64,000 nt of DNA, taken from positions 96,676-160,675 of the forward strand of contig DASVDR010000029.1 in the NCBI GenBank assembly GCA_036381015.1, in the 5' to 3' direction. Position numbers and translations under genes: made by a program. This DNA is from Gammaproteobacteria bacterium. GTDB lineage: Bacteria > Pseudomonadota > Gammaproteobacteria > Steroidobacterales > Rariloculaceae. The notes beneath the pieces are model-generated. The model made no database searches. It was not told the origin of the DNA and saw nothing but the letters and a program-made list of their open reading frames with translations. Below, piece after piece: positions 2,415 through 60,017 of this stretch. How positions within the stretch are numbered: the stretch's first letter is position 1; the number at the start of each line of letters is the position of its first letter.

Positions 2415-5414
2415 TCAGTAGCGCAGCTGGAACCCGACGGTGTAGCGCCGGCCGAGAACGTCGTAGAGACTCTCGTTCGTGCCGATGCCCGTGCCGCCGA
2501 ACGCCGACCAGCCGGCAATGAGAGGCGGGTCCTCGTCGAACACGTTCGCGATGTGCGCGAACGCCTCCCACTCCCCGCCGCTTCCGAGCCGGCCTCGATA
2601 GCTTGCCCGCAGGTTCGTGTAGAACATGGATTCGACGGAGTTGTCATCGATGTCGACGCCCTCGACGAAATCGATGTCCGCCACGCCGCTGTCGATCCAG
2701 CGTCCCTGAAGGAACAGCGTGAACGGCCCGTTGTCGTAGGCGAGGTTGCTCGTCCATTGCAGCTCGGGCACGCCCGCGCCGCCCAGCTCCCCGACGACAT
2801 CGCGCTTCGCGGCACCTGCTTCCGTCGTTGAGTTCTCGTCGAGCCAGCTCGCGATGAACCGCCACCGCAGGCTTTCGGCGCCCTGCCGGAAGAGATTGAT
2901 GTCGCGCGAGTAGGCCACCTCGAGATCGAGCCCGCTGACGTTCCGCTTGTCGACGTTCGCGAACGTGTTCTCCACCAGGGTGATGATGTTCGTATTCGGA
3001 TCGCGCGTGATGCGGCCGCAGAACTCCGCGGCGCCCGTCTCGAAGCATTGGTCGACGATTTCCTGGACGCCGAGAAAGTCGATTGCGCCGTCCACCTCGA
3101 TGTCGTACCAGTCGAGCGACATCGAGAGGCCGTCGACGCGCGCCGGCTGGTACACCGCGCCGACCGTGAACGTGTCGGCCTCCTCCGGCGAGACGTTCGG
3201 ATTGCCGCCGCGGAGCTGGAAGGTCGTGTATCGCTCGTTGTCGAGCTCCGGGTCCTCGAGCGACGTGCCCTGGCCCTGACGGTCGAAGCGCTCCTCGAGG
3301 CTCGCGGCCCGGACGTCGCGGGAAAGCGTGCCGCGCACGCGCAGCACGTCGTTGACGCTCCAGTCGAGGCCGATCTTCGACGCCCAGATGTCGCCGCTGC
3401 CCGAGTAGTCGGCCCAGCGCGCGGCCAGGCTCGCGTTCAACTGCCGAACCAGAGGGCGGTTCGCGATCAGCGGCAGCAGCGTCTCGGCAAAGAGCTCCTT
3501 GACGTCGAAGCGCCCCTCGAAGTTGTCGAGATCCACGAACTCGAGGCGGTCGTCGGTTCCGAGAGAGGCGATCGTGATGCCGCGAATGCCGCGCGCGGGG
3601 TCGTTCGCGAGCGGCGGCTGGTTCACGAGATGCGGCGGGCCGATCCGGTGCTCGATCTGCTGCTCGCGCCAAGATGCGCCGACGGCGAGCGAAACCGGGC
3701 CTGCGCCCCAGCCCTCGGAGATCTCGCTGCTCGCCGACAGCTCGGCATTGTTCTGCTCGAGGTCGGCGCGGACGAACATGTCGTCCGCGACCCACGCGAT
3801 CGCCTCCGGCGAGGCGCGCCCGCGGCCGAAGAGATTGACCGGCACGCAGTCATCGAACTCGTCGCTCAAGAGCGTGACGTTGCAAACGATCTCTCCCGTC
3901 GCCGGATCCCGAACCGCGTCCACGGCCATCGGCAGCCGGTCGCGGCGCAGGAAGTCGGAGAAAATCAGCTCGTTGTCATTGCGTCCGCTCTGCACGTAGC
4001 CCTGGAGCTCCCAGCCGCCGGAGAGCTCCGTCTCGAAGCCGACCGTGAACGAGAGCGTGTCGTTCGACATGATGAACCGGTCCTGCGCGATATCGGCCTC
4101 CGTGTGATAGCGCTGCAGGCGGAAGGACGGGATGTTCTCGTCGATCATCGCCTGATTGATCTCGTCGGGCAGGAATGCGTTGCCCGGGAATATCGTCAGT
4201 GCCCAGATCGAGTGCCCGAGCGGCAGCGTGCCGGCGCTGTCCGTCTCGGTCGAGCCCCACATGCCCTCGAAATAGAGGCGCAATTCCTCGCTCGGGTCGT
4301 AGGTGAGCCGCGCGAAGCCGGTGCTGCGCTCGCTGTCCGGCACGAACGAGCCCGAGCGCGAGCCGTCGGGGTAGGCCGGCGTGTGGATCGAGGTATCGAA
4401 GTCCGTGGGGTTATAGCCGCTGCCGCCGACCATGTTGTTCGTCCCCGTCCCGACGGTCGCGTGCTCGCCGAACTCGAACGGTGCGAGAGAGCCGTCGGGC
4501 AGGAAGTACAGCCGGTCGATCGACGTGCCCGGCGCGTCGATCATCCCGCCGTTCGTGTACTCCGTGGAGACCACGTTCTCGCGCGTCAGAAGGCGCGGAC
4601 CTTGCCCTGTCGCGAGGAAGTCGGAGCTCGTGACGAGGCCGATGCCGCGATACCACTCGCGTCCGTCGAGGTTATCGATGCGCTCGGAGTCGAAGCGGTC
4701 GAGCGCGCCGATGAAGTGGAGGTGCTCGCCGATCGGCGTGCCGCCCGCGATCGAGACCTCGTAACTGTCGTGGTCGTTGCGGCTCGTGACGCCGCCCTGA
4801 AGATGCGTCTCGAGGCCCGTGAAGTCGGTATCGAGAATGAAGTTCACGACTCCGGCGACCGCGTCGGTGCCGTAGGCCGCAGACGCCCCGCCGGTCACGG
4901 TTTCCACGCGCTGGAGCAGGGCTTCCGGGAACAGGTTGATGTCGACGATGCCGAGGCGGTTCGACGGCACGATGCGGCGGCCGTCGAGCAGCACGAGGGT
5001 CCGCTTCGAGCCGATGCTGCGCATGTTGAGGTTGGAGGCGCCGGCCGAGTCCGCCTTGCTCGCGGCCGTGTTCGGCCGCGCGTTGTTCACAAACTGCGGC
5101 AGCTGGTCGAGAGCGTCGATCAGCTGACCGGGCGCCATGTTGCTGAGCTCGTCCACCTGCACGACGGTGACGGGCGTCGGCGTCGTCATCCCCGTCGCAG
5201 TGATTCGCGAGCCGGTGACCGTCACCTCCTCGATCGCTTGCCCCTGAGCGCCTTCGCGCGGCGCTTGCGCCGACGCGACGCCGGCGAGACCGGCGGAAAG
5301 GGCGAGGCCGACGGCCAGGGCGACTGGCGACGGCGGCTCGGGCATCCGCCCGGGGTTTGCAGTCTCGCGCTCTCGTTGCCCTCGGCTGGTTGCACGCTTC
5401 GATCCCCTGCTCAT
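2415..5414 (-). CDS. TonB-dependent receptor (paralog 1)
   Basis: C-terminal ~1000 codons of the 1477-aa ORF. Start MSRGSKR has SD GAAGGAG 7 nt upstream (alternative MPEPP at 5345). Signal ...AGLAGVASAQA. Plug motifs EEVTVTGSRI, RTLVLLDGRR, VTGGASAAYGTDAVAGVVNFILD. Terminal ...GFQLRY. Confidence 0.9.
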   Translation of the reverse strand: MSRGSKRATSRGQRERETANPGRMPEPPSPVALAVGLALSAGLAGVASAQAPREGAQGQAIEEVTVTGSRITATGMTTPTPVTVVQVDELSNMAPGQLIDALDQLPQFVNNARPNTAASKADSAGASNLNMRSIGSKRTLVLLDGRRIVPSNRLGIVDINLFPEALLQRVETVTGGASAAYGTDAVAGVVNFILDTDFTGLETHLQGGVTSRNDHDSYEVSIAGGTPIGEHLHFIGALDRFDSERIDNLDGREWYRGIGLVTSSDFLATGQGPRLLTRENVVSTEYTNGGMIDAPGTSIDRLYFLPDGSLAPFEFGEHATVGTGTNNMVGGSGYNPTDFDTSIHTPAYPDGSRSGSFVPDSERSTGFARLTYDPSEELRLYFEGMWGSTETDSAGTLPLGHSIWALTIFPGNAFLPDEINQAMIDENIPSFRLQRYHTEADIAQDRFIMSNDTLSFTVGFETELSGGWELQGYVQSGRNDNELIFSDFLRRDRLPMAVDAVRDPATGEIVCNVTLLSDEFDDCVPVNLFGRGRASPEAIAWVADDMFVRADLEQNNAELSASSEISEGWGAGPVSLAVGASWREQQIEHRIGPPHLVNQPPLANDPARGIRGITIASLGTDDRLEFVDLDNFEGRFDVKELFAETLLPLIANRPLVRQLNASLAARWADYSGSGDIWASKIGLDWSVNDVLRVRGTLSRDVRAASLEERFDRQGQGTSLEDPELDNERYTTFQLRGGNPNVSPEEADTFTVGAVYQPARVDGLSMSLDWYDIEVDGAIDFLGVQEIVDQCFETGAAEFCGRITRDPNTNIITLVENTFANVDKRNVSGLDLEVAYSRDINLFRQGAESLRWRFIASWLDENSTTEAGAAKRDVVGELGGAGVPELQWTSNLAYDNGPFTLFLQGRWIDSGVADIDFVEGVDIDDNSVESMFYTNLRASYRGRLGSGGEWEAFAHIANVFDEDPPLIAGWSAFGGTGIGTNESLYDVLGRRYTVGFQLRY

Positions 5415-31683: not shown

Positions 31684-33402
31684 TCAGAACGTGCCGCACT
31701 CCGCCTGGCGACTGCAGAGCTCCTCGAGCAGCTTCATCGTCTCCGGGAACGGATCGGCCGGCGGCACGAGGATCTCCGGCTCGTAGCGCCCGGCCGCAAG
31801 ATCCATCGGCGTTAGACCGTCGCGGCCGGCGACCTTGAGCTTCGCGCCGTGGTCGAACAGGAACTGCACGACCTTGTTCCAGCCGTTGCGGGCGGCGCCA
31901 TGGATCGCTGCGCGGCCGTCGGGCGGCACGTAACTGTAGATGTACCGCTGGTTCCCGTGGGTGATGCGGACGTGCATCAGGAAGTTGTCCTTGCCGGGCG
32001 GCGGAATGCGGCCGAACGAGACGGTGCGGCGATTCACGTCCGCGCCGGCCTCGAGCAGGACCTTCAACGTCTCGATGCGGTCCTCCTCGGTCGCGTCCTG
32101 GCCGCGGGTGGCGCGAATGCCGAACCCGACGCCCGCGGCGGCCATGAACGGCGTGACGCCGTACTGGTTCGGCAGCTCGGCGATCGCGCCGTGCTCGAGC
32201 AGCAGACGCACGACCTCGGTGTCGCCCGCCCGCGCGGCGCGGAGCAGCGGCGTGGCGCCCGTGGAGAGCATGACGTCCGTGCCGCGCTCGAAGACCGCGT
32301 CCCGAAACTGCGGCCGGTGCTTCAGCTGGATATTCGGATCCGCGCCGCGGTCGAGCAACAGACGAATCAGGTCCATTGCGTCCGTCTCGTCGCCGTGCAG
32401 CAGCGCGTTGCGCGCGTTGCTCGGCGGCGTGTGCAGATCCACGGCGTGGTAGAGCGGCGTGCGGCCGGCGAAGTCCCACTTGTTAACGTCCGCGCCGGCC
32501 TCGATCAGCGCCTTCGCGAAGTCGAAGTGGCCGTTGTAGATTGCGAGATTCAACGGCGTGGTGCGGTCCGGGTCCGTGATGTCGATGTCCGCGCCCGCGT
32601 CGAGCAGCGGTGCGATGCAAGCGACGCAGCCCTCGCGCGCGGCGTAGTGCAACGCCGCGAAGCCGCCGTCGTGCATGTCCTTCTTGCGCGGCTCGGCCGT
32701 CACGCGCCGCTGCCAGTTGCGCTCCTTGCCGCGCATGTTCGGATCGGCACCGTTCTCGAGGAGCATCGCGACCATCTCGGGGTGGCGTTGCGCGGCTGCC
32801 CACATCAGCGCGGTTTGCCCGCCCCAGCTTTCCACCGCGTTCGGGCGTGCGCCGTGCTCGAGCAGTAACGCCGCGGCATCGAGGTTCCCGGCGCGCGCGA
32901 CGACCATCAGCGGCGTTTGCCCCTCGGCGTTCGCCGCGTTCGCGTCGACGCCCGCCGCGAGCAGGATCTCGAGGATCGGCACGGAGCCGACCAGCGCCGC
33001 TTCCGCGATCGGCGTGGCGCCGAAATCGTTCACGACGTCGGCCTGCGCGCCGGCTTCGAGCAGCGCGCGCGCGAGCTCCACCTCCCCGTAGTGTGCGGCC
33101 CAATGCAGCGCCGTGGTGCCGTTCGCCGCGGCGGCGTTCACGTCCGCGCCCGACTCGATCAGCGCGAGCGCATCGGCGATCCGTTGCTCGCGCGCGGCTT
33201 CGACGAGTGGCGGCGCGGTGCCGGGGGCCGGGAGCGTGTCCGCGAACGCGCCGCCCGACGGGAGTGACGCGAGCACGAGCAGCGCGCAGAAGATCTCGCG
33301 GCGCACACGCGCTGCCGTGGCGCGTATCCGCGCGGCCCCTTGGGATGCCGCGGCGCTTCGCGTCGCGCGGAGACCGGCGGCGGCTGCGCCCCGTCGCGGC
33401 AC
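31684..33402 (-). CDS. Secreted ankyrin-repeat protein
   Basis: More than 8 ANK repeats (G.TALHWAA..G....LLL..GADVN). Hydrophobic signal ..IFCALLVLASLPSGGAFA. GTG start with GGAGA upstream. Lies 10 nt after the DUF1552 gene. Confidence 0.85.
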   Translation of the reverse strand: MPRRGAAAAGLRATRSAAASQGAARIRATAARVRREIFCALLVLASLPSGGAFADTLPAPGTAPPLVEAAREQRIADALALIESGADVNAAAANGTTALHWAAHYGEVELARALLEAGAQADVVNDFGATPIAEAALVGSVPILEILLAAGVDANAANAEGQTPLMVVARAGNLDAAALLLEHGARPNAVESWGGQTALMWAAAQRHPEMVAMLLENGADPNMRGKERNWQRRVTAEPRKKDMHDGGFAALHYAAREGCVACIAPLLDAGADIDITDPDRTTPLNLAIYNGHFDFAKALIEAGADVNKWDFAGRTPLYHAVDLHTPPSNARNALLHGDETDAMDLIRLLLDRGADPNIQLKHRPQFRDAVFERGTDVMLSTGATPLLRAARAGDTEVVRLLLEHGAIAELPNQYGVTPFMAAAGVGFGIRATRGQDATEEDRIETLKVLLEAGADVNRRTVSFGRIPPPGKDNFLMHVRITHGNQRYIYSYVPPDGRAAIHGAARNGWNKVVQFLFDHGAKLKVAGRDGLTPMDLAAGRYEPEILVPPADPFPETMKLLEELCSRQAECGTF

Positions 33403-33412
33403 GCCCGGTCTC

Positions 33413-34726
33413 CTAGACTTCCGCGAGCTCGCCCGTGCTGTCCCCGAACGACTCGATCGGCACGCCGGCGCGGAGCAGCAGCGTCAGGAGCAGGTTCGCG
33501 AGCGGTGTGTTCCGGGGATAGACGAGGTGCTGGCCCCCGCGAATCGTGCCGCCGCCGAGCCCGAGCACCGCCGACGGCAGCGGATCGTTGTTGTGCAGGT
33601 CGCTGTTCGACATGTTGCTGCCGTAGAGCAGGATGGCGTTGTCGAGCACCGAGCCTTCGGCCTCCGGCATCGCGTCGAGCTTCGCGAGGAACTCCGCGAA
33701 GATCTCGCTGTGGTAGGTCTGGATGCTCTGCAGCTTGTCGAGCTTGCCGGGATCCTCGCCGTGATGCGAGAGCGGGTGGAAGGCTTCCGAGATGCCGAGG
33801 TGCGTGTAAGCCTTCATGCTCGCTTCGGCCGCCATCATGTAGTTCCCGATGCGCGTGATGTCGCCCTGGTATGCCAGCGCGAGCAGATCGAACAGCAGCG
33901 TCTGCTGCTCACGGAAATCGGGCGGCACTCCGAGCGGCACCGGCGGCAGCTCGAGATCGGAAAGATCCTGCTCCTTGATCTTCTGCACGCGGCGCTCGAC
34001 CTCGCGCACCGAGTCGAGGTAGGTGTCGAGCCGCGCGACGTCGCTGCGTCCGAGCCGGCCGCGGAGGTCGGCGGCGCTTTCGAGCGCGAAGTCGAGGACG
34101 GAGCCCGTCTCGTCGATGATCGCCGCCCGCTCCTCGGGGCTCGCGCCTTCGCCGAACAGCTTGAAGAAGAGCTTGCGCGGGTTGAATTCCATCGGCAGCC
34201 CTTGCGTGGGCGTGCGGAAGGAGATCGTGTTGCCGAACATGTTCCCGGACGCGCCGGCCGGCCCGGCCTTGCCTTCGGCCGCGATCTCGATGGACGGGAA
34301 CGGCGTGCTCTGCCCGATATGCCGTGCGGCGATCTGGTCGCAGGTCGTGCCGCCTTCCGCGGCGCCCGGCGGTGCACAGCGCAGCCACGTGCCCGGAATG
34401 ATGCCGTGAGGGTCCGGGCTTTCGGCCGGCTTGTTGCGCAGATACGAGACGACCGTGAGACGGTCCTTGAACGGCTCGAGCGGCTTCAGAATCGGCGACA
34501 GCTCGAAGCTCTTGCCTTCGCCCTTCGGCGTCCAGCGGTCGTCGCCTTCTAGCAGGATCGCGCCATGCGGGAAGTAGAAAAAGCCCATGCGGAGCGCCGA
34601 CGCCTCGGCCGCCTCGGCGCGCGTCGCCATTGCGGGCAGCATGGCTTCGAGGAAGGGCAGTGCGATGCCGACGCCGGCGCCTCGCAGGACGGTTCGTCGA
34701 GAGAGACGCTTCTTGCTGATGAACAT
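33413..34726 (-). CDS. DUF1552-family protein (Tat-like signal)
   Basis: MFISKKRLSRRTVLRGAGVGIALPFLEAM.., FYFPHG, ..LLYGSNMSNSDLHNNDPLP..LGGG are characteristic of DUF1552. Start moved to the ATG with AAGGAG upstream (track start 34747). Confidence 0.85.
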   Translation of the reverse strand: MFISKKRLSRRTVLRGAGVGIALPFLEAMLPAMATRAEAAEASALRMGFFYFPHGAILLEGDDRWTPKGEGKSFELSPILKPLEPFKDRLTVVSYLRNKPAESPDPHGIIPGTWLRCAPPGAAEGGTTCDQIAARHIGQSTPFPSIEIAAEGKAGPAGASGNMFGNTISFRTPTQGLPMEFNPRKLFFKLFGEGASPEERAAIIDETGSVLDFALESAADLRGRLGRSDVARLDTYLDSVREVERRVQKIKEQDLSDLELPPVPLGVPPDFREQQTLLFDLLALAYQGDITRIGNYMMAAEASMKAYTHLGISEAFHPLSHHGEDPGKLDKLQSIQTYHSEIFAEFLAKLDAMPEAEGSVLDNAILLYGSNMSNSDLHNNDPLPSAVLGLGGGTIRGGQHLVYPRNTPLANLLLTLLLRAGVPIESFGDSTGELAEV

Positions 34727-34774
34727 GGCCCCCGGCTCCTTATCCATCGGCGGTCTTTCGAGCGCCCTGCGGGC

Positions 34775-48475: not shown

Positions 48476-48745
48476 ATGAAGTCTCTCGAGACGCTGCGCG
48501 AGTGGGCTCGCCGCGCGTCGGGGACCTTCCGGGCCGAATGCTCCTCTTCACGCTGCTGCTCGTTCCGCCATGGCTCACCTGCTCGGCGTCGTGATACCGA
48601 TCGAGGAGCTCGGGGGGCGAGAGGTACCCGGCGTCCTGCCGCTCGCGGCGCTCGTCATGCTGGGCGTCTGCGGATTGGCAGCTGCGGGACCGGCCGGCGG
48701 GCGCTCCGAGTGGCGCCGACGGACGCGCTGCGGGAAGGCGGCTAA
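48476..48745 (+). pseudogene. Near-complete deletion relic of the ADOP permease expected downstream of padR
   Basis: About 270 nt only. Permease-prefix-like start MKSLETLREWARR.. A last-TM-like segment ..VLPLAALVMLGVCGLAAAGPA lies in one frame and the signature tail ..RRALRVAPTDALREGG* in another (compare ..ARRVTAIEPSALLREEG* and ..[16 protein letters not shown] of the other copies). Confidence 0.4.
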
Positions 48746-48795
48746 AAAATGGTGTCAGACACCTTTTTCGGAAATGGTGTCAGACACCTTTTTCG
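48744..48795. repeat. Palindromic repeat pair, locus A (2 x AAATGGTGTCAGACACCTTTTTCGG)
   Basis: Cores GGTGTC-A-GACACC are centred at 48757 and 48782 (25 bp apart), each flanked by an A-run and a T-run. Lies between convergent genes. Confidence 0.9.
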
Positions 48796-49025
48796 GCGCG
48801 CTCCGCTGCCGGCTGTTTCGCATCCGGCTCGTACACGAGAAGATCTCCCGGCTGGCAGTCCAGAATCGCGCAAAGCCTTTCCAACGTGCTGAAGCGGATG
48901 GCTTTGGCCTTGCCGGTCTTCAGGATCGAAAGATTCTGGGGCGTGATGCCCACTTGCTCCGCGACGGTGCTGGAGCGCAATTTGCGCTTCGCGAGCATGA
49001 CGTCGAGATTGACGATGATGGCCAC
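48780..49025 (-). CDS. Small Cro/CI-type HTH regulator (YozG-like)
   Basis: GTG start giving (M)AIIVNLDVMLAKRKLRSSTVAEQVGITPQNLSILKTGKAKAIRFSTLERLCAILDCQPGDLLVYE. The last codons (EKGV*) and the stop lie inside palindromic repeat A2. Confidence 0.85.
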   Translation of the reverse strand: MAIIVNLDVMLAKRKLRSSTVAEQVGITPQNLSILKTGKAKAIRFSTLERLCAILDCQPGDLLVYEPDAKQPAAERAEKGV

Positions 49026-49038
49026 TTCGACGGCCCCG

Positions 49039-49584
49039 CTAGACGACGAGGTCCTGCTCCTCGCGGAGCTCTCGGCCGACGTCCATGATCCAGGAGACGA
49101 CGATGATGATGATTCCGACGACGAGCTCCGTGAACGGCGCCTCGTCGATCCGGATCCGGCTCGCGATGCCATGGCCGGGGACCAGCAAAACCGCGATCAG
49201 GCCCAGCGTCCAGAGGGTGGGGATGAGCATGACGGCGATGCCGATCTGACGGATCTGGTAAACGTTGTCCGCGCTGAAGATCTTGCCTTGTGCATAGAGC
49301 CCGAACAGCTTGACGAGGTGGAAAAGCACCTTCAGCAGTATCCCGGTGCTCAGGATGAAACCCACGACGGCCATCGACCGGAGCACGGCGGGAATGACGT
49401 CTCCGACGTAGATCGCGCCGCCCACGGTGACGCTCGTGTCGTACGGGTCCGTGCCCGTGGCGATCAGCAGCGTGCCCACGAGCAGCGCAATGGCCGTCGC
49501 GCCCAGCAGAAGCTGAAAGAGCTGCCGGAGCGAGCGGCTGTAGCGGGCGACCCTCTCCAGCTTGTCGGTGCGTTGCGTCGTCAC
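49039..49584 (-). CDS. DUF2975-family membrane protein
   Basis: 181 aa with 4-5 TM. Immediately upstream of the YozG-like HTH (13-nt gap), which is the usual pairing for this family. Confidence 0.75.
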   Translation of the reverse strand: MTTQRTDKLERVARYSRSLRQLFQLLLGATAIALLVGTLLIATGTDPYDTSVTVGGAIYVGDVIPAVLRSMAVVGFILSTGILLKVLFHLVKLFGLYAQGKIFSADNVYQIRQIGIAVMLIPTLWTLGLIAVLLVPGHGIASRIRIDEAPFTELVVGIIIIVVSWIMDVGRELREEQDLVV

Positions 49585-53923: not shown

Positions 53924-56350
53924 TCAGATCGCCGAGCGTTCGGGCTCGCCGGCCTCGTCGGCGACGGTTTCGGCCGCGGGCGGCACCTCCAGCATCCTGA
54001 ACGCATCGCTCTTCACGATGCCGCGGACCAATGCCGAAAAGCGGTAGCGGTCGCGCGCCGCGTCGTCGACGATCCGGCGCACCGTCGGCATGTCGTAGTA
54101 CTCGAGCGAGCGGCCGAGCGCGTAGGTCATCAGCTCCTCGGTGATGGTCCAAACGATTCGCTCCGGATCTTCGAGGAGCGCCCGGCGCAGCTCGTCCGGC
54201 CCCACGATCTCCTTGCCGCCGATCAGCTTCCCGCTCGCGTCGATCGGCTCGCGGGCGCGCTTGTCGTAGTCCTGCCATTCGCCGATCGCGTCGAAGTTCT
54301 CGAGCGTCAAGCCGAGCGGGTCCATGACCGCATGGCAGGAAGCGCAGACCGCGTCCGCACGATGCTGCTCGAGCCGCTCGCGGACCGTGCGCGGCTCGGG
54401 GCCTGTGTCCTCGACGAGATCCGTGTCGACGCCGGGCGGCGGCGGGGACGGCGGCGAGCCGATCAGGTTCTCGAGGATCCACTTGCCCCGAATCACGGGG
54501 GCCGTGCGATTCGGATACGACGTCGCCATCAGGATCGCGCCCTTGCCGAGCAGGCCGAAACGCGCCGAGCTCTCGAGCTCGACGCGGCGGAACTGATCGC
54601 CGCGCACCGCGGGCAGCCCGTAGAGATGCGCGATCGTCTCGTTGACGAAGGTGTGATCCGCCGTCATCAGGTCGAGGACGCTCCGGTCCTCGAGCAGGAT
54701 GCTCGCGAGGAAGAGCTCGAGCTCGTGCTTGTAGGCTTCGCGGGGATCGGGCGTGGCCTGCGGGAAGATGCCGCGGTCCGGCACGACGTCGTCGAGCTTG
54801 TCCACGTCGAGCCACTGGAACGCGAAGCTCGTGACGAGCGAACGGGCGCGCTCGTCGGCGAGCATGCGCTCGATCTGCGCGTCGAGGACCTCGGGCTCGC
54901 CGAGCCGCCCTTGCTCGGCGACGCGGAGAAGCTCGTCGTCGGGGATGCTGCTCCAGAGGAAGAACGAGAGACGCGACGCGAGCTCGAGATCCGACAGCTC
55001 GTAGATCGAGCCCGGAGGCAGATCCTCGGACGGAGACGCGAAGCGGAACAGGAAATCCGGGCTCGCGAGAATCGCGGTAACGGCTTTGCGGATGCCCGTC
55101 TCGAAGCCGCCCGACGCGGCGCCGCCGCGATAGAACGCGAGCAGCTTGTCGAGGTCGTGCTTGCCGACCGGGCGGCGGTACGCGAGCCGGGCGAGCCGCC
55201 CGAGAATCTCGCGCGCACAGCTCTCCGCCGTCTCGGCGCCCGCATCGGGACCGACATGGCAGCTGAAGATCTTGCGGCGGGACGGCGTCTCGCTCACGCC
55301 GCTCGGATGGAACGGGCCCTGGAGCTCGAACGAGCTCACGCGCAGGATGCGGTCCTGGCCGCCGCCGGGCGCCGCGAGCTGAAGCCGATCGTCGGATTCC
55401 GCGAAGGTGCGCGCGAGGAACGTGACGCCGACCTGATGCGGACCCGCCGTGGCCTCGAAGCGGATGTTCTTCAGGCGTTGATTGATGCGGTCGACGGCCG
55501 ATTGGCCGTGCTGGTCGATCGCCTTCTGGTCCTCCTCGCCGCCGATCGTCGTGCGGTAGACCTCTCGCCCGTCGAGCGTGACGAGCACCGTGTTCTCGAA
55601 CTCCATGTTGTAGACCCAGAGCGCCTGGGCCATGTCCGCGACGTTGATGACGTACTCGCCGTCGGCGGGGAAGTCGTGCATTACCGCCAGCCCGCCGCGC
55701 GTGCCGAGCGGCAGCCCTTCGATGTGACGCTTGTAGGATCCCGCGTCGCCGTCGTTGACGTAAGTCGTGCTGCCGGGCGGCGCATCCGGATTGCCGACGG
55801 CTTCGATCGCGACCGTGCGAGCGGCTGCGACGTACTGCTCCATGAACGTCGGCGAGATCGTCAGGACCGAAGCGTTGTTGTCGAAGCCGCTCTTCTTGTT
55901 GTCGGGCGGAAGGAGCTCCGTGGCATCGACGTCGACGCCGAGGAGATCCCGCACGGCATTCTCGTATTCGGTGCGGTTCAAACGACGCAGGCCGACGAAG
56001 CCCGGGTGGGGCCCGGAGGCTTCGGCCTCCTCGGCGAGCCGATGCTCGAGCGCGGCGACGAAGGCGGCCTTTTGCTCGGGAGACGGCTGCGGGCGGTCCG
56101 GCGGCGGCATCAAGTTGCCGCGGAACTTGCGCAGGACTTTCTCCCAGACGGCGGCATCGGCGCCGACGTTCTCGGGGCTCATCTCCTCGAGGACGAGGCC
56201 GCCGGTGCGGTCGATCGAATTGTGGCAGTCGACGCAGTAGGTTTCGACGAGGCCCCACTGCTCGGCCACCGATCCCGGGCCCCGGGAGCAGGCGGCAAGG
56301 GCGAGAGAGCCGATGAGGACGGCGACTCCTTGTCTATACGTCCGGTGCAT
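53924..56350 (-). CDS. Haem-binding DUF1592/DUF1595/DUF1587/DUF1588/DUF1585-type lipoprotein
   Basis: Lipobox LALAAC. CVDCHN haem motif. LRRLNRTEYENAVRDLLG. C-terminal CASCHAVMDPLG, typical of this 'planctomycete cytochrome' family. Confidence 0.85.
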   Translation of the reverse strand: MHRTYRQGVAVLIGSLALAACSRGPGSVAEQWGLVETYCVDCHNSIDRTGGLVLEEMSPENVGADAAVWEKVLRKFRGNLMPPPDRPQPSPEQKAAFVAALEHRLAEEAEASGPHPGFVGLRRLNRTEYENAVRDLLGVDVDATELLPPDNKKSGFDNNASVLTISPTFMEQYVAAARTVAIEAVGNPDAPPGSTTYVNDGDAGSYKRHIEGLPLGTRGGLAVMHDFPADGEYVINVADMAQALWVYNMEFENTVLVTLDGREVYRTTIGGEEDQKAIDQHGQSAVDRINQRLKNIRFEATAGPHQVGVTFLARTFAESDDRLQLAAPGGGQDRILRVSSFELQGPFHPSGVSETPSRRKIFSCHVGPDAGAETAESCAREILGRLARLAYRRPVGKHDLDKLLAFYRGGAASGGFETGIRKAVTAILASPDFLFRFASPSEDLPPGSIYELSDLELASRLSFFLWSSIPDDELLRVAEQGRLGEPEVLDAQIERMLADERARSLVTSFAFQWLDVDKLDDVVPDRGIFPQATPDPREAYKHELELFLASILLEDRSVLDLMTADHTFVNETIAHLYGLPAVRGDQFRRVELESSARFGLLGKGAILMATSYPNRTAPVIRGKWILENLIGSPPSPPPPGVDTDLVEDTGPEPRTVRERLEQHRADAVCASCHAVMDPLGLTLENFDAIGEWQDYDKRAREPIDASGKLIGGKEIVGPDELRRALLEDPERIVWTITEELMTYALGRSLEYYDMPTVRRIVDDAARDRYRFSALVRGIVKSDAFRMLEVPPAAETVADEAGEPERSAI

Positions 56351-57455: not shown

Positions 57456-58289
57456 ATGATCGTCCACCTGATCGACGGCACCTACGAGCTGTTCCGGCAC
57501 TTCTACGGTCTGCGCCGCTTCACGAAGGGCAAGGACAGACCCTACGGCGCAGTCGTCGGTGTCCTCAACATGGTGCTGAAGATGATCGAAGGCGACGCGA
57601 CGCATTTGGGCGTCGCGACCGACCACGTCATCGAGTCGTTCCGCAACGAGCTCTGGCCCGGCTACAAGACCGGCGAAGGGATCGAGCGTGCGCTTCTCGC
57701 GCAATTCCATCCGCTCGAGGAAGCCCTCGCGGCGATGGGTGTTGCGGTCTGGCCGATGGAGGAGCTCGAGGCGGACGACGCGCTCGCGAGCGCGGCGCGC
57801 ATCGCCGCAGCCGACGAGCGCGTGCGGAAGGTCTGCATTTGGACGCCCGACAAGGATCTCGCGCAATGTGTGCAGGGCGATCGCGTCGTGCAAATCGTTC
57901 GCCGCGGCAAGGAGATTCGCGATGCGACCGGCGTGCGCCGCAAGTTCGGCGTGGATCCCGAGCGGATTCCGGATTTTCTCGCGCTGGTCGGCGATCCGGC
58001 CGACGGCTATCCGGGTCTGTCCGGCATCGGGCCGGTCACGGCCGCGCAGCTCGTGCGCCGATACGGCGCCATCGAGGACTTTCCTTCGGCGGTTCTCGGG
58101 AAGCGGCGCGAGACGGCTCTGCTGTTCAAGAAGCTCGCGACCCTGCGCACGGACGCGCCGCTATTCTCGAACGTCGAGGAGCTGCGATGGCGCGGGCCGA
58201 CGGCGGGCTTCGCCGAATACGCCGAGCGTCTCGGAAGCAGCCGTCTGACCGTGCGCTGCGAGAAGGCGAGCCGCCGCGCCGCAGGCTGA
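57456..58289 (+). CDS. 5'-3' exonuclease / flap endonuclease (PIN-like 53EXO + H3TH)
   Basis: MIVHLIDGTYELFR.., ..EADDALAS.., ..TPDKDLAQC.., ..DFLALVGDPADGYPGLSGIGPVTAAQLV... Alternative upstream ATG at about 57407. Confidence 0.85.
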   Translation: MIVHLIDGTYELFRHFYGLRRFTKGKDRPYGAVVGVLNMVLKMIEGDATHLGVATDHVIESFRNELWPGYKTGEGIERALLAQFHPLEEALAAMGVAVWPMEELEADDALASAARIAAADERVRKVCIWTPDKDLAQCVQGDRVVQIVRRGKEIRDATGVRRKFGVDPERIPDFLALVGDPADGYPGLSGIGPVTAAQLVRRYGAIEDFPSAVLGKRRETALLFKKLATLRTDAPLFSNVEELRWRGPTAGFAEYAERLGSSRLTVRCEKASRRAAG

Positions 58290-58296
58290 TCGAATC

Positions 58297-58353
58297 GAAA
58301 AAAAGGTGTCAGACACCTTTTTGGGAGAAAAGAGGTGTCTGACACCATTTTCT
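58297..58353. repeat. Palindromic repeat pair, locus B
   Basis: GAAAAAAAGGTGTCAGACACCTTTTTGGG followed by GAGAAAAGAGGTGTCTGACACCATTTTC. Cores centred at 58311 and 58340. Confidence 0.9.
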
Positions 58354-58441
58354 TGCGCGCCAACATAGCCGCTTCGTTCAAGCGCCGGGCGCGGCGCCAT
58401 GGGACACTGCATGCAGGCCACCCACCCAGCCGGACGCGCAG

Positions 58442-59140
58442 ATGAACACCTGTATCCGCCCGCGACCTCCCGCCGCCCCGGACCCCCGCACGACCTACAT
58501 GCGCCCGTTGCCCGCCGATCTCGTCGCGCTCGACTCCCGAGACGGGCGAGCGCTGTTCACGCAGGCGTTGACGGCGGGAACCATGGAAGGCTACTTCAAG
58601 CTGGCCCAGCAATTTCACACTCAATCGGATCCGGCCTATTGCGGTCTCGGGTCGCTCGTCTGCGCGCTGAACGCGCTGAACATCGATCCTGCTCGCGTCT
58701 GGAAGGGGCCGTGGAGATGGTTCAGCGAGGAGCTGCTCGACTGTTGCAAGTCGCTCGACGACGTCCGGCAATTCGGGCTCACGCTGGACGAAGCGGGCTG
58801 CCTCGCCGAGTGCAGCGGCGCGGCGGTCGCCATGCACCGGCCGCCGACCGCGAACGTCGACGCGTTCCGCGCGCACGCTCAGCGGGCCGCGACGGGAGCG
58901 GAGGGGCCGGTGCTCGTCGTGAATTACTCGCGACGAGCCTTGGGCCAGACCGGGGGCGGCCACTTCTCGCCGATCGGCGGCTACCACGTGCCGACGGACA
59001 AGGTGCTCGTGCTCGACACGGCCCGTTTCAAGTATCCGCCCCACTGGGTGCCCGTCGACCTCCTCTTCGACGCGATGGAGGACGAGGATCGGGACACGGG
59101 CCGCCCGCGCGGCTGGCTCCTGATCGACAAAGGCGCTTGA
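58442..59140 (+). CDS. Bacterial phytochelatin synthase-like papain-fold enzyme (PCS domain only)
   Basis: Catalytic triad contexts all present: QSDPAYCGLGSL (Cys), GGGHFSPIGGYH (His), VLVLDTARFKYPPHWV (Asp). Alternative start MRPLP at 58499. Confidence 0.85.
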   Translation: MNTCIRPRPPAAPDPRTTYMRPLPADLVALDSRDGRALFTQALTAGTMEGYFKLAQQFHTQSDPAYCGLGSLVCALNALNIDPARVWKGPWRWFSEELLDCCKSLDDVRQFGLTLDEAGCLAECSGAAVAMHRPPTANVDAFRAHAQRAATGAEGPVLVVNYSRRALGQTGGGHFSPIGGYHVPTDKVLVLDTARFKYPPHWVPVDLLFDAMEDEDRDTGRPRGWLLIDKGA

Positions 59141-59198
59141 CCGAAAAAAGGTGTCTGACACCTTTTTCGGGAAAAAAGGTGTCTGACACCTTTTTTTC
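59141..59198. repeat. Palindromic repeat pair, locus C
   Basis: CCGAAAAAAGGTGTCTGACACCTTTTTCGG (near-perfect 30-nt palindrome) followed by GAAAAAAGGTGTCTGACACCTTTTTTTC. Cores centred at 59156 and 59184. Starts 1 nt after the PCS stop. Confidence 0.9.
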
Positions 59199-59222
59199 TG
59201 TCGAGAGTCATAATTTGCGCTC

Positions 59223-60017
59223 ATGGACGCGGCGCAATTCTTCCGTGGCGGCTGGGTTCGCTTCCCGCACGCCCCCGAGGTTGCGGACTGGGCGGCACGA
59301 GCCCGCCCGGTGGCGGAGGCTTGCGTCGCGGACCCGGAACAACGCGCGCGCTGGCTGCGATGCGGCGGCACTTGGTTCGTCGGCGTCAACGTCTTCCCGA
59401 ACGATGCCGCCGGCGCCGTGCCGGAGGCGGGCGTGCCTCCGCTCGCGGGCCCGCCGGTCGAATTCATCGCGGAGGCGTTGAAGCTTGCGGTCGGATGGGA
59501 CAGGGGGCAGATCTCGGCCTGTTTTCCCGGCTATCCCCGGCCCTCGGCCGGCGAATCCGCGGCCGCGTTCCGCTTTCGCCGCGACCGTGACGCGGCGCAT
59601 GTCGACGGTCTACAGCGCTTCGAGAGTCGGCGTCGCCGGCTCGGCGAGCTGCAAGGCTTCATCCTCGGCGTGCCGCTGACGGACGCTCCCGCCGGGGCCG
59701 CGCCGCTCGTGGTGTGGGAAGGCTCGCATGAGGTGATGCGCCGCGCGCTGCGCGCACGGCTCGCCGACGTGCCGACGGAGCGCTGGAGGGACGAGGACCT
59801 TACCGACGCTTACGTCGCGGCCCGGCGCGAGTGCTTCGAGACGTGCCGCCGCGTGCCGCTTCACGCGCGCCCCGGCGAGTCGTATCTGATTCACCGGCTC
59901 GCACTGCACGGCGTCGCGCCCTGGAGCGCCGCGCCGGCCGGCGAGCGCCTGATCGCGTATTTCCGCCCGAATCCGTTTCCGGACGCCGCTCCCGATTGGT
60001 GGCTGGACCGGCCCTAG
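59223..60017 (+). CDS. Hypothetical protein, possibly PhyH-like Fe(II)/2-oxoglutarate oxygenase superfamily
   Basis: AAHVDG (HxD), VVWEGSHE, and LIHRLALHG (distal His) resemble PhyH-type spacing. By-eye call only. Confidence 0.45.
   Translation: MDAAQFFRGGWVRFPHAPEVADWAARARPVAEACVADPEQRARWLRCGGTWFVGVNVFPNDAAGAVPEAGVPPLAGPPVEFIAEALKLAVGWDRGQISACFPGYPRPSAGESAAAFRFRRDRDAAHVDGLQRFESRRRRLGELQGFILGVPLTDAPAGAAPLVVWEGSHEVMRRALRARLADVPTERWRDEDLTDAYVAARRECFETCRRVPLHARPGESYLIHRLALHGVAPWSAAPAGERLIAYFRPNPFPDAAPDWWLDRP

Follow-up and report, generated by a model that had tools for sequence, protein, structure and literature searches.

A phytochelatin-synthase-like gene lying between terminator-like palindromic doublets of a dispersed repeat in a gammaproteobacterial genome

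In a 64,000-nucleotide (nt) stretch of a genome assembled from a soil metagenome and assigned to the Rariloculaceae (Gammaproteobacteria; assembly GCA_036381015.1, 229-kb contig DASVDR010000029.1, positions 96,676 to 160,675), hereafter called the window, a phytochelatin-synthase (PCS)-like gene is flanked on both sides by pairs of short palindromes. A sequence-only reading of this DNA had seen in the arrangement either insulation of the gene by terminators or a repeat-bounded cassette. The gene (58442-59140, + strand) encodes a protein of 232 amino acids (aa) of the Alr0975/NsPCS type, peptidase family C83 (MEROPS C83). Its product is a full-length match to PF05023 (profile positions 2-210 of 210, E 5.5e-83), it is recognizable against the structures of Nostoc Alr0975 (NsPCS; PDB 2BTW/6THO, E 1e-33), and Cys67, His174 and Asp192 do not vary when it is aligned with 11 homologues, so that the open reading frame (ORF) and its intact catalytic triad stand as first described. 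In the NCBI annotation the protein starts at Met20 (58499) and counts 213 aa. The N-terminal extension beginning with MNT-C is conserved in many PCS homologues, which makes 58442 the more likely start; the annotated one is probably too short. Upstream lies a gene for a 5'-3' exonuclease (57456-58289, stop codon 58287-58289; PF02739 and PF01367), downstream a conserved hypothetical gene with a weak match to PhyH, a 2-oxoglutarate/Fe dioxygenase family (59223-60017). All three genes are on the + strand.

The repeated unit is a perfect 23-nt palindrome, A5-GGTGTCWGACACC-T5, that is, A5-GGTGTC-W-GACACC-T5 with A or T at the centre. Four copies are present in 58290-59200, at 58300-58322, 58329-58351, 59145-59167 and 59173-59196, each with its core set between an A-run and a T-run, and they are arranged as two doublets of about 50-55 nt. 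The first doublet (58298-58351) has cores at 58305-58317 (centre A) and 58334-58346 (centre T), with the spacer GGGAG between its units. It begins 8 nt past the exonuclease stop and ends 90 nt upstream of the PCS ATG. The upstream pair is thus where the sequence-only reading had placed it, save that the distance had been given as 89 nt; counted to the annotated start at Met20 it is 147 nt. The second doublet (59144-59197) has cores at 59150-59162 and 59178-59190, both T-centred, and the spacer CGGG. It starts 3 nt past the PCS stop and ends 25 nt upstream of the ATG of the PhyH-like gene. Pairs are therefore found on both sides of the gene, with the four cores at the positions described earlier, but the downstream pair does not follow the stop codon by 1 nt as had been claimed, since the stop occupies 59138-59140 and the A-run only starts at 59144.

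A third doublet (48744-48793; cores 48751-48763 and 48776-48788, both A-centred), which had not been connected with the PCS pairs, is situated about 10 kb away. It lies between two convergent units, one comprising a PadR gene and a further ORF (+ strand) and the other DUF2975 and HTH_26 genes (- strand). It starts right at the stop (0 nt) of the + strand ORF downstream of the PadR gene. On the opposite strand, it enters the ORF of the HTH_26 regulator (48780-49172, Cro/C1-type, PF13443, E 2.4e-22). The TGA stop codon of this ORF (48780-48782) is the centre of the core at 48776-48788, so that the repeat itself encodes the final residues, EKGV*. It may have replaced or supplied the 3' end that was native to this gene. 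Apart from these last four codons and the stop, all six units are outside Pfam-supported coding sequence.

A chance origin of the palindromes was ruled out by shuffling: the window contains six exact cores where 0.89 are expected, and none of 100 shuffled sequences reached six. With the 19-mer AAAGGTGTCWGACACCTTT, allowing up to 3 mismatches, six matches were found against an expectation of 0.00; the relaxed search adds no copies, and hence there are no decayed family members in the window. Substitutions are seen in the A/T flanks, whereas the 13-nt core does not vary between the six copies. The doublets are the strongest short-range inverted repeats of the window.

A single unit is a poor hairpin because its centre is only 1 nt long, and the predicted structure is weak (-10 to -12 kcal/mol with the A:U extension counted in). 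When paired with each other, both units of a doublet are predicted to form one hairpin of about 20-24 bp, and this holds for all three doublets and on both strands. The folding energies are -34.0 kcal/mol (z -5.8) on the + strand and -32.4 (z -5.7) on the - strand for the first doublet, -39.8 (z -6.3) and -35.4 (z -7.1) for the second, and -31.1 (z -6.0) and -30.1 (z -5.5) for the third. No shuffled sequence folds as stably. Furthermore, in either reading direction an A-run stands before the stem and a run of 4-7 U behind it; behind the stem of the second doublet there are 7 U on the + strand and 6 U on the - strand. All three doublets begin 0-8 nt past a stop codon, two of them between genes on the same strand and one between convergent genes. 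A simple terminator scan picked up one doublet.

In structure and in placement at 3' ends, the doublets thus look like bidirectional intrinsic (Rho-independent) terminators, with which they share the layout of A-tract, stem-loop and U-tract right behind stop codons, also between convergent genes. They differ from ordinary terminators in that the stems of the latter are idiosyncratic, whereas the doublet stem is a repeated, sequence-conserved module composed of two self-complementary halves. Insulation by terminators on both sides, as envisaged in the sequence-only reading, fits this anatomy of hairpins, U-runs on both strands and position behind stops; termination as such is a structural prediction. 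Terminator-type insulation of the PCS gene may be considered plausible, with good support from structure.

The same core is found well beyond this genome. For a survey of the family, GGTGTCWGACACCTT was compared with one genome per GTDB species, which gave at least 120 loci; the statistics on clusters and pairs given here derive from the matches listed. By our own calculation, about 2,200 single 15-mer matches are expected by chance in 596 Gb. The number of loci is therefore uninformative, and only pairs and the enrichment in non-coding DNA were used as evidence. At least 45 loci, including three viral contigs and the window, have two or more exact cores within 60 nt, for which the chance expectation is effectively zero. 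Cores in pairs or arrays occur in at least nine phyla among the matches listed, in hosts with a GC content from 0.39 to 0.73. Pairs, arrays resembling bacterial interspersed mosaic elements (BIMEs) or in-frame insertions were seen in Pseudomonadota (gamma and beta), Actinomycetota (Thermoleophilia, Coriobacteriia), Planctomycetota, Myxococcota, Acidobacteriota, Spirochaetota and Omnitrophota. In Bacteroidota and Bacillota (Oscillospiraceae), an exact core is accompanied by a nearby degenerate copy with 1-2 mismatches.

The carriers, as named from the titles of the records, include Thermoleophilia, Gaiellales and other Actinomycetota, Collinsella, Planctomycetales, Pirellulaceae, Myxococcaceae, isolates of Achromobacter and Bordetella, other Gammaproteobacteria including Alteromonadaceae, Acidobacteriota (Vicinamibacterales, Aminicenantes), termite-gut Treponema and Omnitrophota (example loci, in our numbering: L001:224-264, L034:7819-7999, L043:4658-4702, L046:1547-1599 and L108:141-198). 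A metagenome-assembled genome (MAG) of the Woeseiaceae (L017) has one full 23-nt palindrome as a single copy. While the core is constant, flanks and spacing are specific to the lineage: the distance from start to start is 15-18 nt in Thermoleophilia, 28 nt in a MAG of the Planctomycetales, 25-29 nt in the window and 41-52 nt in Achromobacter. The A5/T5-flanked version of the window is also present in Pirellulaceae, Omnitrophota, Treponema, Collinsella and other Gammaproteobacteria.

The placement of the cores was assessed with a control-calibrated test against random positions of the same loci, which showed the elements to be largely non-coding: 20% of 41 multi-core clusters are placed in coding-like ORFs as against 78% of random positions (p 3e-15), and single cores are inside such ORFs in 42% versus 78% (p 7e-12). 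Of 74 pairs of neighbouring cores, 51 combine an A-centred with a T-centred unit and so have complementary centres (p 0.0015); counted by locus, the split is 31 versus 12 (p 0.005). Since lineages are non-independent, these last p-values are indicative only. Complementary centres are what is expected for inverted dimers of the repetitive extragenic palindromic (REP) type. Gaps with clusters are convergent or tandem in 21 cases and divergent in four, according to crude gene calls that misplaced the first doublet of the window.

Two of the loci deserve separate mention. Achromobacter veterisilvae LMG 30378 (L035:2075-2324, NZ_UFQC01000002.1), a cultured isolate that is tractable for experiments, has a BIME-like tandem array with a period of 93 nt and 2.2 copies, in which A- and T-centred cores alternate, downstream of a gene for a 951-aa protein. 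A Vicinamibacterales MAG (DASRGT010000002.1) has a DUF4147/MOFRL glycerate-kinase-like gene (621-1832) whose MOFRL domain is interrupted in frame by six tandem 21-nt core-bearing units (L077:1487-1604). The insertion adds about 42 aa of the pattern (VSDTxxx)n, and 138 residues align there to a 106-position profile. Such an in-frame array resembles the known behaviour of mobile palindromic repeats. When ORFs lying no more than 600 nt from a core were compared all-versus-all by BLAST, for the loci with at least two cores, only within-lineage synteny emerged, so that no conserved neighbour gene of the kind found in REPtrons was seen.

A phage origin was discarded, as IMG/VR holds only three paired matches and the repeat is thus rare in viral contigs. 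A plasmid origin was likewise rejected: a blastn search of PLSDB with the 67-nt doublet of the window retrieved only two weak arsA matches, although a bare 13-mer is undetectable in this way. In one of the three viral contigs (IMGVR_UViG_3300015371_000008, L135:7818-7867), an FtsK/TraB-like ORF of 921 aa, for which no Pfam match was obtained, is followed immediately by three cores in a high-GC element. Conjugative elements of actinomycetes carry clt repeats at the same position downstream of an FtsK/TraB-like gene.

With respect to known repeats, the closest resemblance in behaviour is to the REP, BIME and REPIN elements (REPINs being REP doublets that form hairpins) of E. coli, Pseudomonas and Stenotrophomonas, which are associated with REP-associated tyrosine transposases (RAYT, TnpA_REP) and are also short, multi-copy extragenic palindromes (PMC3116915, PMC3733652, PMC6006769). 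Like these, the units mostly occur as inverted dimers folding into one long hairpin (all three doublets of the window), with occasional tandem clusters, as in Achromobacter, and in-frame insertions into genes. REP-type elements, like the doublets, occupy 3' intergenic sites and have been linked to termination and mRNA stability. Their patchy, lineage-specific presence also has a counterpart here, since about 100 kb of distinct DNA from relatives lacks the core, even when 2 mismatches are allowed.

There are differences as well. A REP stem has a loop of 2-20 nt, whereas the arms of the present unit match perfectly around a single central nucleotide, and the whole 13-nt core is shared across phyla, whereas REP stems are species-specific. 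The conserved GTAG/GTGG or CGTC tag is a defining feature of REP sequences (PMC3733652); neither end of the window units has GTAG, GTGG or CGTC. A Pfam scan of the approximately 50 ORFs across the 64-kb window gave no PF01797-type (RAYT) protein. Nor is the core present in the curated REP table of Quentin et al. (PMC6006769), including the class 3 'CnGA-foot' structures, which come from Planctomycetes, Acidobacteria and Proteobacteria. The repeat can therefore be described as REP-like and of a terminator-hairpin kind, but not as a member of REP/REPIN, because the defining tag is missing and the core is outside the REP table.

Other sources were equally silent: Rfam gave nothing at gathering thresholds in the window or in 19 other loci, sub-threshold matches being to generic hairpin and miRNA models, and the literature search turned up no bacterial paper with the 11- or 13-mer core. 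A further parallel is provided by the DNA uptake sequences (DUS) and the Correia elements (Neisseria miniature insertion sequences, NEMIS) of Neisseria, short motifs, over-represented throughout the genome, that often form terminator hairpins as inverted pairs downstream of genes. The DUS GCCGTCTGAA shares GTCTGA with the core. It is non-palindromic, restricted to the Neisseriaceae and tied to the receptor ComP, whereas the doublet motif spans many phyla, and nothing seen here connects it with transformation.

Taken together, we consider it rather probable that the doublets are dispersed intergenic repeats of a REP/REPIN-like nature acting as bidirectional terminators, and that the bracketing of the PCS gene is incidental and not a structure for mobilisation. 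In such a scheme, the two units of a doublet would pair in RNA or in extruded DNA into a long hairpin set between an A-tract and a U-tract, an architecture that would serve as a bidirectional intrinsic terminator and as a stabiliser of 3' ends. Lying directly behind stop codons, the doublets are proposed to be transcript ends: the first would end the exonuclease transcript, the second the PCS transcript and the third the two convergent operons. The PCS gene would then be an ordinary resident accessory gene, with one element at its own 3' end and another at that of the preceding gene, and the repeat would have been spread by a recognition or transposition partner.

Several points weigh against this interpretation. 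The termination activity of the doublets is read from their structure only. The 25 nt between the second doublet and the PhyH-like gene would leave almost no room for a promoter if termination is efficient, in which case this gene needs a near-leaderless promoter or read-through; for the terminator model this is the principal difficulty, and either termination at the second doublet is partial or the PhyH-like promoter is unusual. An invariant 13-nt core exceeds what a plain terminator needs and points to sequence-specific recognition. Complementary centres are present in only one of the three window doublets, and the hallmarks of REP systems, a GTAG or CGTC tag and a RAYT among the window ORFs, are lacking. 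Finally, PCS relatives are found in differing contexts, so the gene did move at some point in the lineage.

On a broader scale, it may be tentatively suggested, with the balance of the evidence still somewhat short of it, that GGTGTCWGACACC is the signature of an undescribed cross-phylum family of dispersed palindromic elements. That the 13-bp core stays constant while flanks and spacings differ by lineage implies that some conserved partner recognises it, be it a transposase or a DNA- or RNA-binding protein, and the doublets around the PCS gene would, if this is true, be its local footprint. REP-type elements are thought to be lineage-specific beyond their 4-nt tag, while here an entire 13-bp palindrome is common to at least nine phyla. 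If confirmed, this would indicate a hitherto unrecognised, widely conserved system of protein-nucleic-acid recognition or a mobile terminator module, and it would offer a simple sequence handle for finding the partner by phylogenetic profiling. It is the repeat family that is unusual, with its identical core in at least nine phyla, and the PCS locus that is ordinary.

The best surviving alternative, although an unlikely one, is that the 13-bp palindrome is an operator-like target of a dimeric DNA-binding protein (a helix-turn-helix, ribbon-helix-helix (RHH), nucleoid or insulator protein), so that the doublets would mark or insulate the PCS transcription unit through a protein and not through RNA hairpins. 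The invariance of the core in six out of six copies with variable flanks speaks for it, as does its form: perfect palindromes around a single central nucleotide are typical binding sites of dimers, and on their own they make poor hairpins. One core combined with differing flanks and spacings across many phyla is also in agreement with it, and so are the direct arrays with a 20-21-nt periodicity in Acidobacteriota (L054, L077). Two viral contigs have the cores where operators could be expected. In IMGVR_UViG_3300046004_001366 (L136:4041-4123), the 105 nt separating a divergent pair of CopG/RHH genes (3851-4021 on the - strand and 4126-4332 on the + strand) are occupied by three cores, of which two are exact and one has 2 mismatches, an operator-like layout that hints at a protein reading the palindrome; in the other (L134), a divergent promoter region contains two of the cores.

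The inner heptamer GTCWGAC is furthermore identical to that of the FadR/GntR-type operators tGGTCWGACCa, which are likewise palindromes with a single W centre (PMC2532739). The outer half-sites differ (tGGTC versus GGTGTC here), and FadR sites are few and located in promoters, whereas the core is multi-copy and located at 3' ends. It is this position, directly behind stop codons and not in promoters, that makes protein sites less attractive, together with the high local copy number without a common neighbouring gene. Complementary centres and A/U tracts point to a hairpin function, the in-frame array within a conserved enzyme gene (L077) suits a mobile repeat better than an operator, and no candidate binder was identified. 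Both interpretations are compatible in the sense that recognition by a protein and a hairpin in the transcript could coexist.

A different proposal is that doublet, PCS gene and doublet form a unit that was acquired as a whole, or that can be moved, deleted or inverted as such, the doublets being recombination substrates either for a dedicated enzyme or for plain homologous recombination between repeats of about 54 nt. This is very unlikely on the evidence from the locus and from its relatives. PCS is an accessory gene of variable location. The best non-self identities are 77% for PCS, 82% for the exonuclease and 80% for the PhyH-like protein, with Steroidobacteraceae as the closest named PCS relatives, and none of nine contexts of relatives shares synteny with the window on either side. 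In three relatives (P0065, P0018 and P0006; L121-L129, L142), PCS is followed by a convergent AraC/HTH_18 gene with an overlap of 11-18 nt, which suggests that an AraC-type regulator and PCS are a conserved pair that is missing at the window locus; in P0065 the pair belongs to a metal-efflux island with cation-efflux, multicopper-oxidase (copper oxidase) and CopB genes. In a fourth relative (L143:2190-6708, JAWMQY010333371.1), a 70%-identical PCS lies 1.4 kb downstream of a TraG/TrwB-type coupling protein of a type IV secretion system, and this homologue is probably on a conjugative element. The variable contexts show that PCS has moved during the history of the group, and the absence here of the AraC partner of three of the four relatives' contexts, along with the neighbourhood of a coupling protein in one, can be cited in favour of a cassette. 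Nothing seen ties this movement to the palindromes.

The flanking repeats themselves might allow for some recombination. The first and second doublets are 86% identical (best when inverted), and excision of 58298-59197 would leave a plausible 33-nt junction between the exonuclease and PhyH-like genes. As two repeats of about 54 nt that are homologous in both orientations flank the PCS gene, RecA-mediated deletion or inversion could take place without a dedicated enzyme. Yet each of the two is 80-82% identical to the third doublet, and hence flanking copies hardly closer to each other than to the distant one cannot be singled out as the products of one event. Removing the second doublet alone leaves a PCS-PhyH gap of 28 nt that looks like an old operon junction into which a repeat was inserted, and the exonuclease and PhyH-like genes are non-adjacent in all six contexts of relatives. 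The composition is not that of a newcomer either: a check of GC and codon usage, suggested in the sequence-only reading, gave no anomaly, with a GC of 0.685 and a third-position GC (GC3) of 0.86 for PCS against 0.65-0.73 and 0.82-0.89 for the neighbours.

Mobility functions are also lacking. As noted earlier, no recombinase is nearby, and the Pfam scan extends this to transposases, integrases and Y1/RAYT proteins among the roughly 50 ORFs of the 64 kb. Searches for attC core sites (RYYYAAC/GTTRRRY) or direct repeats flanking the PCS unit or the doublets found none, and an alignment with copies from other genomes revealed no target-site duplication or extended common boundary beyond the A/T tracts, which are the element boundary. 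The resemblance to integron cassettes and to composite transposons bounded by insertion sequences (IS), in which a single promoter-poor accessory gene also lies between imperfect palindromic repeats, therefore stops short: there are no attC sites, integrase, IS, target duplications or compositional shift, and the repeats are also found away from any cassette. Elsewhere, too, single genes sit between two elements (L041, L110, L039), and those genes are mutually unrelated. With a generic repeat of which a third copy lies about 10 kb off and whose family is widespread, two of three elements would adjoin in 10-13% of random placements among 45-60 intergenic gaps (about 11% of placements). Cassette mobilisation of PCS is thus unsupported, and the outcome for the locus is deflationary: a normal resident accessory gene that owes its cassette-like look to a dispersed, terminator-like repeat.

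Most improbable is the donation of a promoter by the repeat, in which CTGACA/TGACAC of the core would serve PCS (core 58334-58346) or the PhyH-like gene (core 59178-59190) as its -35 hexamer, since the hexamer is not on both strands of each copy as had been thought, but on one strand only, + for T-centred and - for A-centred cores; a sigma-70 scan of 57500-60000 found 0 sites; the best -10 candidate 3' of the first doublet, CATAGC, is without the key final T; and the A-centred cores of the third doublet direct their - strand hexamers into the 3' end of the convergent + strand unit. In its favour, TGACAC at 59184-59189 is followed after 19 nt by CATAAT (59209-59214) and 8 nt further by the ATG at 59223. 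The spacer is outside the optimum of 16-18 nt, and 59184-59225 may at most hold a possible near-leaderless promoter of the PhyH-like gene, built in part from the repeat, suboptimal in spacing and missed by the scan.

As to the proteins encoded at the locus, the PCS-like protein resembles the bacterial half-size homologue NsPCS/Alr0975 in having a full catalytic domain with the Cys-His-Asp triad and, at about 230 aa, in being devoid of the eukaryotic C-terminal domain, with sequence similarity that is only moderate. NsPCS reportedly acts mainly in the hydrolysis of glutathione; the window protein may do the same or may make phytochelatins. The exonuclease has the same sequence as P0121 (100% identity), whose annotation is that of a 5'-3' exonuclease H3TH protein, and the PhyH-like protein is 100% identical to P0241, a 'hypothetical protein', its match to PF05721 (E 0.0017) being below the cut-off.

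Elsewhere in the window, families of a planctomycete type are encoded at 33413-34747 and 53924-56350, namely a DUF1552 (HXXSHH) protein and a multi-domain PSD/PSCyt cytochrome protein with the domains DUF1592, DUF1588, DUF1587, DUF1585 and DUF1595. Near these genes, a 572-aa ankyrin-repeat protein is encoded at 31684-33402.

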